This document shows, piece by piece, positions 39,873 through 40,066 of a DNA stretch of 64,000 nt. Source of the DNA: Candidatus Paceibacter sp. Lineage in GTDB: Bacteria > Patescibacteriota > Patescibacteriia > DYGC01. The first letter of the stretch is position 1; each line of letters opens with the position of its first letter. The notes beneath the pieces were generated by a model. The model was not told the DNA's origin. It saw nothing but the letters and a program-made list of their open reading frames with translations, and did not search any database. The position numbers and the translations under genes are program-made. The stretch is from the NCBI GenBank assembly GCA_020724925.1, contig DYGC01000002.1:2201-66200 (forward strand). Reading direction: 5' to 3'.

Positions 39873-40066
39873 AAAAAACGCCGCCCTGCTGGTCCGCACG
39901 GATAATTTTGGGTTCGTTTTTCGTTTCCTCGCAAACTCGTCACCGTTTTGTCTACTTCGCAGACAAAACGGTTGACTCAAACAGGGTGCTCGGATTTTGG
40001 CTTTGCCAAAACCACTCAAACTCACCACAAAATTATGTCCTTCGCGGACCAATGGGCGGGATGGGG
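39873..40066 (-). ncRNA. candidate ~190-nt structured RNA, class unknown
   Basis: On the minus strand the 5' CCGCCC..GGTCCGC..ATAATTTTG pairs with the 3' CAAAATTAT..GCGGACC..GGGCGG (plus coordinates 40028-40059 with 39881-39910), followed by a U6 tract. The stem encloses a 15-bp hairpin (39939-39976) and a 9-bp hairpin (39992-40013) whose G-U pair is valid only on the minus strand. No ORF with an RBS. Confidence 0.4.

Follow-up and report, generated by a model that had tools for sequence, protein, structure and literature searches.

A candidate family of structured interspersed repeats of about 220 nt in Candidatus Magasanikbacteria

A segment of the minus strand (40059..39841) of the window, by which we mean the whole 64,000-nucleotide stretch of DNA analysed here, is by a modest balance of probability a member of a family of non-coding, structured interspersed repeats of about 220 nt. 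Such a repeat would be non-autonomous, would act as a folded single strand and would probably serve as a terminator or 3'-end structure when transcribed. The nearest genomes to the window are those of Candidatus Magasanikbacteria (CPR), and the family appears, as far as sampled, to be confined to a narrow clade of them. Comparison across the loci collected showed that the element is dispersed in multiple copies, is polymorphic in presence or absence and has no coding capacity. The first-pass annotation had taken the segment for an independent small RNA of housekeeping type, a view that does not agree with the many dispersed copies, the syntenic relatives that have no element and the lack of a conserved promoter upstream. 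Because the copies are scattered and are missing at the same spot in close relatives, we place the element among interspersed repeats and not among housekeeping RNAs of the 6S or SRP type.

The element lies between a GT4 glycosyltransferase gene and a tRNA-Gln gene, as had been annotated (Table 1). The window also carries rpoB, rpoC and aminoacyl-tRNA synthetase genes, and its GC skew is strongly positive. Downstream of the ABC-F gene, a low-GC island (27-34%) with defence or mobile-type genes was observed, and 27297-29720, in otherwise housekeeping surroundings, encodes a protein of 807 aa that weakly matches domains of the TrwB/TraG-type coupling protein and HerA.

All helices described in the first pass were found on the minus strand within 39881-40059, as were both hairpins of the interior. 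The closing stem does contain the three helices reported, but it is longer than had been thought, being a rod of about 34 bp that also includes GGT/ACC and GTTT/AAAC. Likewise, the U6 run is present but does not follow the 3' strand immediately, since a 2-nt CG spacer intervenes, and the segment drawn at 39873-40066 is indeed structured but the conserved unit continues 32 nt further in the 3' direction, including a hairpin at 39870-39841. The unit thus comprises three parts, namely the rod with its branched tip, the stretch CG-U6-GG and a 13-bp hairpin. The order along the rod is H1, the loop AUU/AGC(A), H2, the loop GRAGGnn/CCGU, H3, GGU/ACC and GUUU/AAAC.

Table 1 Coordinates of the repeat unit and its parts, of the flanking genes and of other features.
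Feature	Position	Strand	Basis or remark
GT4 glycosyltransferase gene	38660-39817	+	One flank of the element
tRNA-Gln(CTG)	40131-40202	+	Other flank of the element
Whole repeat unit, 219 nt (rod, branched tip, U-run, 3' hairpin)	39841..40059	-	Stretch common to all other copies
Rod 5' arm, CCGCCC-ATT-GGTCCGC-GAAGGAC-ATAATTTTG-T-GGT-GA-GTTT-GAGT	40014..40059	-	Pairs with 39881-39919
Rod 3' arm, AAAC-GA-ACC-CAAAATTAT-CCGT-GCGGACC-AGCA-GGGCGG	39881..39919	-	Pairs with 5' arm
Helix H1, CCGCCC / GGGCGG	40059-40054 / 39886-39881	-	Complementarity
Helix H2, GGTCCGC / GCGGACC, 7 bp	40050-40044 / 39897-39891	-	Complementarity
Helix H3, ATAATTTTG / CAAAATTAT, 9 bp	40036-40028 / 39910-39902	-	Complementarity
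Apical branched domain, type A	39920..40013	-	Fold of minus strand
Tip hairpin, GGTTTTGGC-AAA-GCCAAAATC	40013-39993	-	Fold
Small G-U-rich tip hairpin	39992-39978	-	Fold
15-bp tip hairpin, GTCAACCGTTTTGTCT-GCGAAGT-AGACAAAACGGTGAC	39976-39939	-	Fold
Tip junction, GAGTTTGCGAGGAAACGA	within 39920..40013	-	Fold
U6 run, 2 nt past GC-rich closing helix	39873..39878	-	Invariant in every copy
3' hairpin, 13 bp, loop ACAC	39841..39870	-	Part of the unit; z -4.7
REP/REPIN-like repeat	19045-19082 / 19157-19188; 40368-40406 / 40460-40498; also 15091-15116, 50685-50710		
Third palindromic repeat	Window 35891-35925, 40560-40595, 63816-63857, 18966-19000; L031 11650-11950; L033 9980-10000; L038 3115-3140		
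Island genes: DUF3800, MmeI/Eco57I-like restriction-modification fusion (43863-46859), DUF5677, KAP NTPase, DUF2726, Bro-N	42315-54000		
Further island genes: PD-(D/E)XK nuclease, HTH + SocA/Panacea antitoxin-like protein	42315-54000		

The ends of the unit were defined by comparison with other copies, which are designated here by L numbers. In BLAST and nhmmer comparisons, homology with L023, L025, L027, L029, L030, and L033 starts at most 3 nt from 40059 and stops 4-8 nt from 39841; some copies have 19-50 nt more in common upstream of the 5' arm and about 20 nt more downstream. Across copies, the rod is followed by N-G-U6-GG. The core of the 3' hairpin (ACCTTTTG...CAAAAGGT) is invariant, and its outer pairs and loop-closing pair covary. 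This hairpin was never found without the rod in the window or the loci examined, and pre-existing solo hairpins were accordingly rejected as an insertion target. The unpaired CCGU, AGC, GAGUGG, and GGAAACGAA are invariant across diverged copies. Both arms carry conserved internal-loop sequences that differ from each other, and the loops are asymmetric. At the tip, two forms were distinguished: the copies of type B (L023 3425..3236; L035 6468-6530) have the type A tip of the window swapped for a different two-hairpin tip, and the two types are unrelated to each other.

The first pass had found no ORF with an RBS in the segment. A 69-codon frame with a TTG start (40052..39843) does cross the element, but it is not kept among the copies because 1-nt indels between them shift the frame; a coding reading was rejected, and the element is non-coding as proposed. 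An alternative pairing of U6 with CGAAAAACG, which folds in the window copy, was also discarded: L033 and type B both have an interrupted A-run, so this pairing is not conserved.

Folding of the minus strand recovered this architecture with a minimum free energy of -86.8 kcal/mol (z -6.69), and none of 200 shuffled sequences folded as well. The plus strand reached -74.1 kcal/mol (z -4.39), in line with the strand assigned in the first pass. In three diverged copies, too, the sense strand, equivalent to the minus strand of the window, was better than the antisense strand by 12-20 kcal/mol and had the lower z-score. Covariation was evaluated over 47 pairs of the rod and the 3' hairpin in eight related copies. 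Compensatory changes were present in 15 of the 47 pairs, with standard pairs in 98.4% of the cells, and these pairing and compensatory values were reached by none of 500 shuffles; when the partner was slid by 1-3 columns as a control, pairing was 42-49% with 0-2 compensatory pairs. The changes were located in H2, H3, H4, and H5, and also in the 3' hairpin (3 of 13 pairs compensatory, 99% paired). H2 occurs as GGUCCGC/GCGGACC, AGCUCGA/UCGAGCU, and CGAGC/GCUCG, all of which are paired. For these eight related sequences, and bearing in mind that palindromes can gain paired changes by template switching without selection, the fold is shown to be kept by compensatory substitutions, and the secondary structure described in the first pass is real and evolutionarily maintained.

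At pairs with a Watson-Crick majority, the deviating cells consisted of 10 G-U, 2 A-C, and 6 others. This excess of G-U over A-C marks the minus strand of the window as the folded strand and favours a role for that strand in single, folded form. Since G-T wobble is also tolerated in DNA hairpins, the asymmetry does not tell RNA from single-stranded DNA, and the two cannot be separated from sequence alone.

Copies at other loci were sought with the two-arm pattern CCGCCC N3-4 GGTCCGC N4-7 ATAATTTTG, which matched only the element in the window, with 0 chance matches expected. A metagenome scan with the same pattern gave 8 contigs; both arms stand about 150 nt apart in six of them, and one contig ends inside a copy. 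The match on L028 was not accepted as a true copy, because this contig has no other similarity and the match is probably due to chance. Together, the pattern scan and protein-anchored look-ups placed copies at 7 or more distinct intergenic positions among related Ca. Magasanikbacteria. L024 represents the locus of the window in a relative, with flanks 92% identical. L023 and L030 share one locus, and the flanks of the copies on L025, L026, L027, and L029 are unrelated. The near-identity of the window and L024 was set aside as a sign of selection, since hardly any difference is seen anywhere in the 39.6-40.2 kb stretch. The genes beside the copies encode Elp3, Pth, LepA, an RNase J-like beta-CASP protein, BipA, SIMPL, and a spermidine-synthase-like protein. 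The position next to a tRNA gene, which had been likened to that of housekeeping RNAs, is therefore incidental.

A profile search revealed a second, diverged copy on L023, and the two L023 copies flank Elp3. Further copies came to light through Elp3 homologues: one lies upstream of an 80%-identical Elp3 on L033, a 292-kb contig running into rpoB/rpoC, with which the window begins, and partial ones occupy the contig ends of L035, L036, and L037. Four contigs (L026, L035, L036, and L037) terminate within a copy, as repeats break assemblies in this way. When about 325 kb of collected sequence was searched with a covariance model built from the rod and the 3' hairpin, no further diverged copies were detected; no match was obtained with a generalised arm pattern in IMG/VR or with BLAST against phage and plasmid sequences, and nhmmer and BLAST comparison of the element with the ABC-F-syntenic loci of nine related genomes, where synteny was poor, gave nothing. 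An exact-protein look-up returned no record of the GT4 protein of the window.

The copies lie in either orientation relative to neighbouring genes, and three contexts were recognised. Some follow a co-directional gene, as on L027 and L029 and at 27 nt and 22 nt past the Elp3 stop codon on L023 (the copy downstream of Elp3) and L035, respectively. Others are convergent with a gene end, as in the window (24 nt from the GT4 stop) and on L025 (8 nt from the LepA stop). The copies on L033 and L023 (the copy upstream of Elp3), and probably that on L026, stand between divergent genes.

The presence of the element varies between close relatives. L018 and L022, whose GT4 proteins are 94% (87% in nucleotides) and 73% identical to that of the window, respectively, keep the order from GT4 to the tRNA-Gln promoter and gene, and the element is absent from both; the interval corresponding to about 39803-40072 of the window is replaced by about 410 unrelated bases in L018 and by a short spacer in L022. 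The GT4-tRNA-Gln slot was observed to be a variable hotspot. In L018, the closest relative, the minus strand of 1502-1669 holds a 55-aa hydrophobic ORF (MKNSMTNYVNIVSLITFIYGTIGYFLVSNK...) with a GGGAG ribosome-binding site and a downstream hairpin with a T-run, which may encode a small membrane or toxin-like peptide.

A second case is found around Elp3. L038 and L023 are 92% identical in nucleotides through Elp3 and 89% in the upstream gene; the site upstream of Elp3 is empty in L038, with 18 nt against 251 nt containing a type-B copy in L023, and the right edge of this difference falls 12 nt beyond the end of the 3' hairpin. Downstream of Elp3, L038 retains only a degenerate remnant of the 5' arm of about 45 nt. 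In L031 both sides of Elp3 are free of copies, as is the downstream side in L033. The upstream site is occupied by type B in L023 and type A in L033, and the downstream site by type A in L023 and type B in L035. Furthermore, L026 matches window 20435-25001 at 98.4% identity, and immediately upstream, at the position of the peptidase S51 gene of the window, it carries other sequence and a copy of the element. In L026 (54-117) this copy and a TGCTAGAAT promoter precede the spermidine-synthase-like gene; a strain-level rearrangement with its breakpoint at the repeat was thus observed. Judging from these comparisons, copies are gained, lost, swapped in subtype and eroded on a strain or species time-scale. 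The homologue and covariation analysis suggested in the first pass confirmed covariation but showed the copies to be dispersed and absent at the syntenic site. That annotation had named lack of conservation in related genomes, or membership of a palindromic mobile repeat, as what would speak against it, and in substance this is what was found.

A single-copy housekeeping RNA (6S, SRP, Y RNA or similar), missed by Rfam owing to the divergence of CPR sequences, is very improbable. Such RNAs resemble the element in its size of about 180 nt and in a closing stem that joins the 5' and 3' ends, and we take GGUCCGCGAAGGA of the element to resemble SRP helix 8 and the 5' end and stem of Y RNA. However, the element is multi-copy, dispersed and dispensable, is absent at the orthologous site in close relatives (at least 7 dispersed copies, none in syntenic L018 or L022), and so departs from the conserved single-copy gene pattern of a housekeeping sRNA. 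Searches with Rfam, as recommended in the first pass for 6S, SRP, and other models, agreed with the proposal of an RNA of no known class. Rfam 15 at the gathering score returned two tRNAs only and left the element unmatched; at E≤10 over 39500-40500 there was nothing credible on the element; the element alone at E≤1 matched no 6S, SRP, Y RNA, tmRNA, ribozyme, or riboswitch; and one diverged copy gave no match.

The individual classes differ from the element in structure as well. 6S RNA is a long rod with a large central bubble that mimics an open promoter. The first pass had seen a likeness to it in size and closing stem, yet the 6S model (RF00013) did not match and no 6S-type bubble is present: in the single-sequence and the consensus fold alike, the rod of about 34 bp is continuous, its internal loops are small and its tip is multi-branched. 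SRP RNA has a helix 8 with conserved loops and a GNAR tetraloop. RF00169 and RF01854 did not match the element, nor were GNAR or AGCA features seen in it. The segment that had been compared to helix 8, GGUCCGC, pairs with the 3' arm and is represented by AGCUCGA or CGAGC in other copies; as the sequence of H2 varies freely, the SRP- or Y RNA-like segment is a variable helix strand and not a conserved motif. Y RNA has an invariant Ro-binding helix and an adjacent rsr gene. Here the Y RNA model (RF00019) did not match, the helix sequence is unconserved, and no TROVE-domain gene (rsr) was present among the window ORFs scanned. Integron attC sites, retron ncRNAs, omega or bridge RNAs, and ribozymes, judged by their familiar features, were also rejected: no R-box consensus, core motifs or Rfam hits were seen, and no reverse transcriptase, recombinase, or TnpB gene adjoins the element.

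No conserved promoter was found upstream of the copies and no outward promoter inside the element, only weak matches particular to single copies, and the upstream flanks show no relation, even directly beside the first base of the rod, or have just a T-run in common. This bears on whether the family consists of true sRNA genes, each giving a discrete RNA of about 185 nt (the rod and U tail) that would bind a protein or a trans target through its loops and junction, with paralogues spread by duplication or mobilisation. We regard this as possible but distinctly less probable than a repeat. Such genes would account well for a strand-specific fold with covariation and G-U bias, for unpaired segments that are invariant while adjacent helices change their sequence wholly, and for the invariant U6 after the GC stem; moreover, the copies in the window and on L025, L026, and L033 have no co-directional upstream gene and, if expressed, would be separate units. 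They fit poorly with the missing promoter-like motif, with copies that begin 22-27 nt past a stop codon, are dispensable at strain level and decay to remnants, and with a conserved 3' hairpin that lies downstream of the putative terminator and outside such an RNA.

Evidence for the means of spread was also sought. No transposase was found beside any copy or in the window, about 420 kb of related sequence likewise showed none, whether of the Y1/HUH type or another, and there was no longer element with the same ends among the metagenome matches. A clean target-site duplication was not definable: GTTTTTT stands on both sides of the rod in many copies, and AAAATG/AAAAGTG flank the L023 insertion relative to L038, and neither is clean or consistent. 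Orientation relative to GC skew showed no bias (4 loci against 3), and a replication-strand bias was rejected. With no recurring promoter, transposase, clean target duplication or skew bias, the element was read as a non-autonomous repeat whose single-stranded fold matters. An unlikely alternative is that it works at the DNA level only, the rod and 3' hairpin folding in single-stranded DNA as substrates of an HUH/Y1-type enzyme (IS200/IS605 or RAYT-like) or a site-specific recombinase encoded elsewhere, with RNA irrelevant. The strand-asymmetric hairpins, the sharp 3' boundary just past the conserved hairpin and the lack of an obvious target duplication are consistent with this, as are G-T pairs in DNA hairpins and a REP-like GTAG-palindrome family in inverted pairs in the same genome, directly 5' of three copies. 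IS200/IS605 elements show an orientation bias relative to GC skew. The absence of such a bias here, that of a transposase in the sequence searched, and an invariant U6 after the GC stem with no obvious role in DNA all argue against it.

The GTAG-palindrome family is a second, REP/REPIN-like repeat, in which GTAG is followed by the palindrome GGGCGAATGACAATTCGCCC, and inverted pairs stand 53-88 nt apart with 90-96% complementarity. In L025, L027, and L033 it immediately precedes the rod element on the 5' side, and its occurrence suggests that a CPR genome has a RAYT-type system. Gene 3' ends and promoter regions hold a third repeat, which is short, palindromic and intergenic (GTCATCCTGGAAAATTTT... 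in the window and GTCATGCCGAACTTGTTTCGGCATC in relatives). In addition, a promoter-like repeat of 55 nt, starting with CCTGTGGATAAC and ending with TGCTATAAT, is present three times (15148-15202, 50613-50667, and 52618-52672), an exact 42-nt tandem duplication (CCTCGCAATGACGAGCGGCGTTCACGTTTTGGTGGACCGTCG) lies at 35574-35657 just past the DUF2207 gene, and related GCTTCG...CTCGCAATGAC motifs occur at four gene junctions (29528, 32771, 35556, and 38635). The intergenic DNA of this lineage is thus crowded with repeats.

Among known systems, the element works most like MITE, ERIC and Correia-type repeats and REPINs. MITE-type repeats such as the Correia elements of Neisseria and the enterobacterial ERIC/IRU are non-coding and intergenic, 100-250 nt in length, with inverted arms that form a long imperfect hairpin; those of the Correia and ERIC type differ in presence between close strains, are frequently transcribed together with adjacent genes and can affect termination or the stability of the mRNA. 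The element shares with them the lack of coding, the scattered intergenic copies, the inverted arms in a long imperfect hairpin and the variable presence between close strains, and like classical MITEs it is multi-copy and dispersed. In contrast, its arms are not terminal, as the unit runs about 40 nt past the 3' arm (U6 and hairpin), each arm has different conserved loops, the helices covary freely, two exchangeable tip modules exist, and no clean TA or other target duplication and no cognate transposase was found. Bertels and Rainey (2011; PMC3116915) describe REPINs of the REP-RAYT system as non-autonomous, hairpin-forming, extragenic repeats that persist in lineages while the enzyme is encoded elsewhere. 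The element is similarly non-autonomous, hairpin-forming and extragenic. REPs are palindromes of 20-35 nt in inverted doublets, and GTAG-led ones have been described. The arms of the rod, by contrast, are 39-46 nt long, are not self-palindromic and have no GTAG, and the sequence searched showed no RAYT gene. Proteobacteria, firmicutes, and cyanobacteria have well-documented interspersed repeats with structure, and literature searches gave no description of such repeats in CPR/Patescibacteria, whose genomes are tiny and gene-dense; on the favoured reading, the element is an undescribed member of this bacterial kind.

The most concrete activity suggested by the anatomy would be transcript termination with protection of the 3' end. 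The terminator-like 3' end proposed in the first pass was borne out in sequence terms, with the GC-rich GGGCGG/CCGCCC helix closely followed by the invariant U6, as in a Rho-independent terminator or 3'-end stabiliser, and with copies shortly past the Elp3 stop codon. A terminator scan did not call the rod and U6, because the 'loop' is 167 nt. The element is unlike Rho-independent terminators in that its hairpin encloses these 167 nt with a branched tip, and in that a second conserved hairpin with no U-tail lies past the U-run. Moreover, the copies at 3 of 7 loci (window, L025, and L026) are antisense to local genes, so a terminator role cannot explain every copy.

On the favoured reading as an interspersed repeat, the element would spread as a non-autonomous mobile or recombination-spread repeat of the MITE/REPIN/ERIC kind and would act as a folded single strand. 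When transcribed in sense, the 3' arm would zip onto the 5' arm and the GC-rich closing helix would form just before U6; the rod would thereby end the transcript and protect its 3' end, for example at the copy 27 nt past the Elp3 stop codon. Any sense transcript of the window copy, which is antisense to its neighbours, would have to originate in the promoter region of the divergent tRNA-Gln gene. A protein that copies or binds the element would most likely recognise it by the 3' hairpin and the invariant nucleotides of the loops.

Other features also sit less easily with a repeat of this kind. The conserved unpaired GAGUGG, GGAAACGAA, CCGU, and GRAGG are no less compatible with a specific function of RNA and protein together, and the non-terminal arms with different conserved loops are unlike classical transposase-bound terminal inverted repeats. 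Another proposal, which we consider improbable, is that the copies make up a family of RNAs of about 185 nt, specific to CPR, that are produced independently and terminate themselves. Their conserved asymmetric loops and junction (GRAGG, CCGU, GAGUGG, and GGAAACGAA) would bind a cellular protein in the manner of a Y RNA or 6S-like scaffold, and the family would multiply via its own RNA or single-stranded form. This would explain why the 5' boundary is sharp and coincides with the first base of the rod, why A-rich tails follow the 3' hairpin and why the ends are extended or truncated to varying degrees.

The short intergenic regions of this lineage hold at least three repeat families, one of which has an unusually elaborate fold supported by covariation. 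A strong covarying fold beside a tRNA gene does not suffice to identify a housekeeping RNA. Where these metagenome-assembled genomes show assembly breaks and local rearrangements, the repeat accounts for them, and it is a compact system in which to study the persistence of non-autonomous elements in reduced genomes. Were the element indeed an RNA scaffold, it would represent a new RNA class in a phylum with almost no characterised non-coding RNAs.
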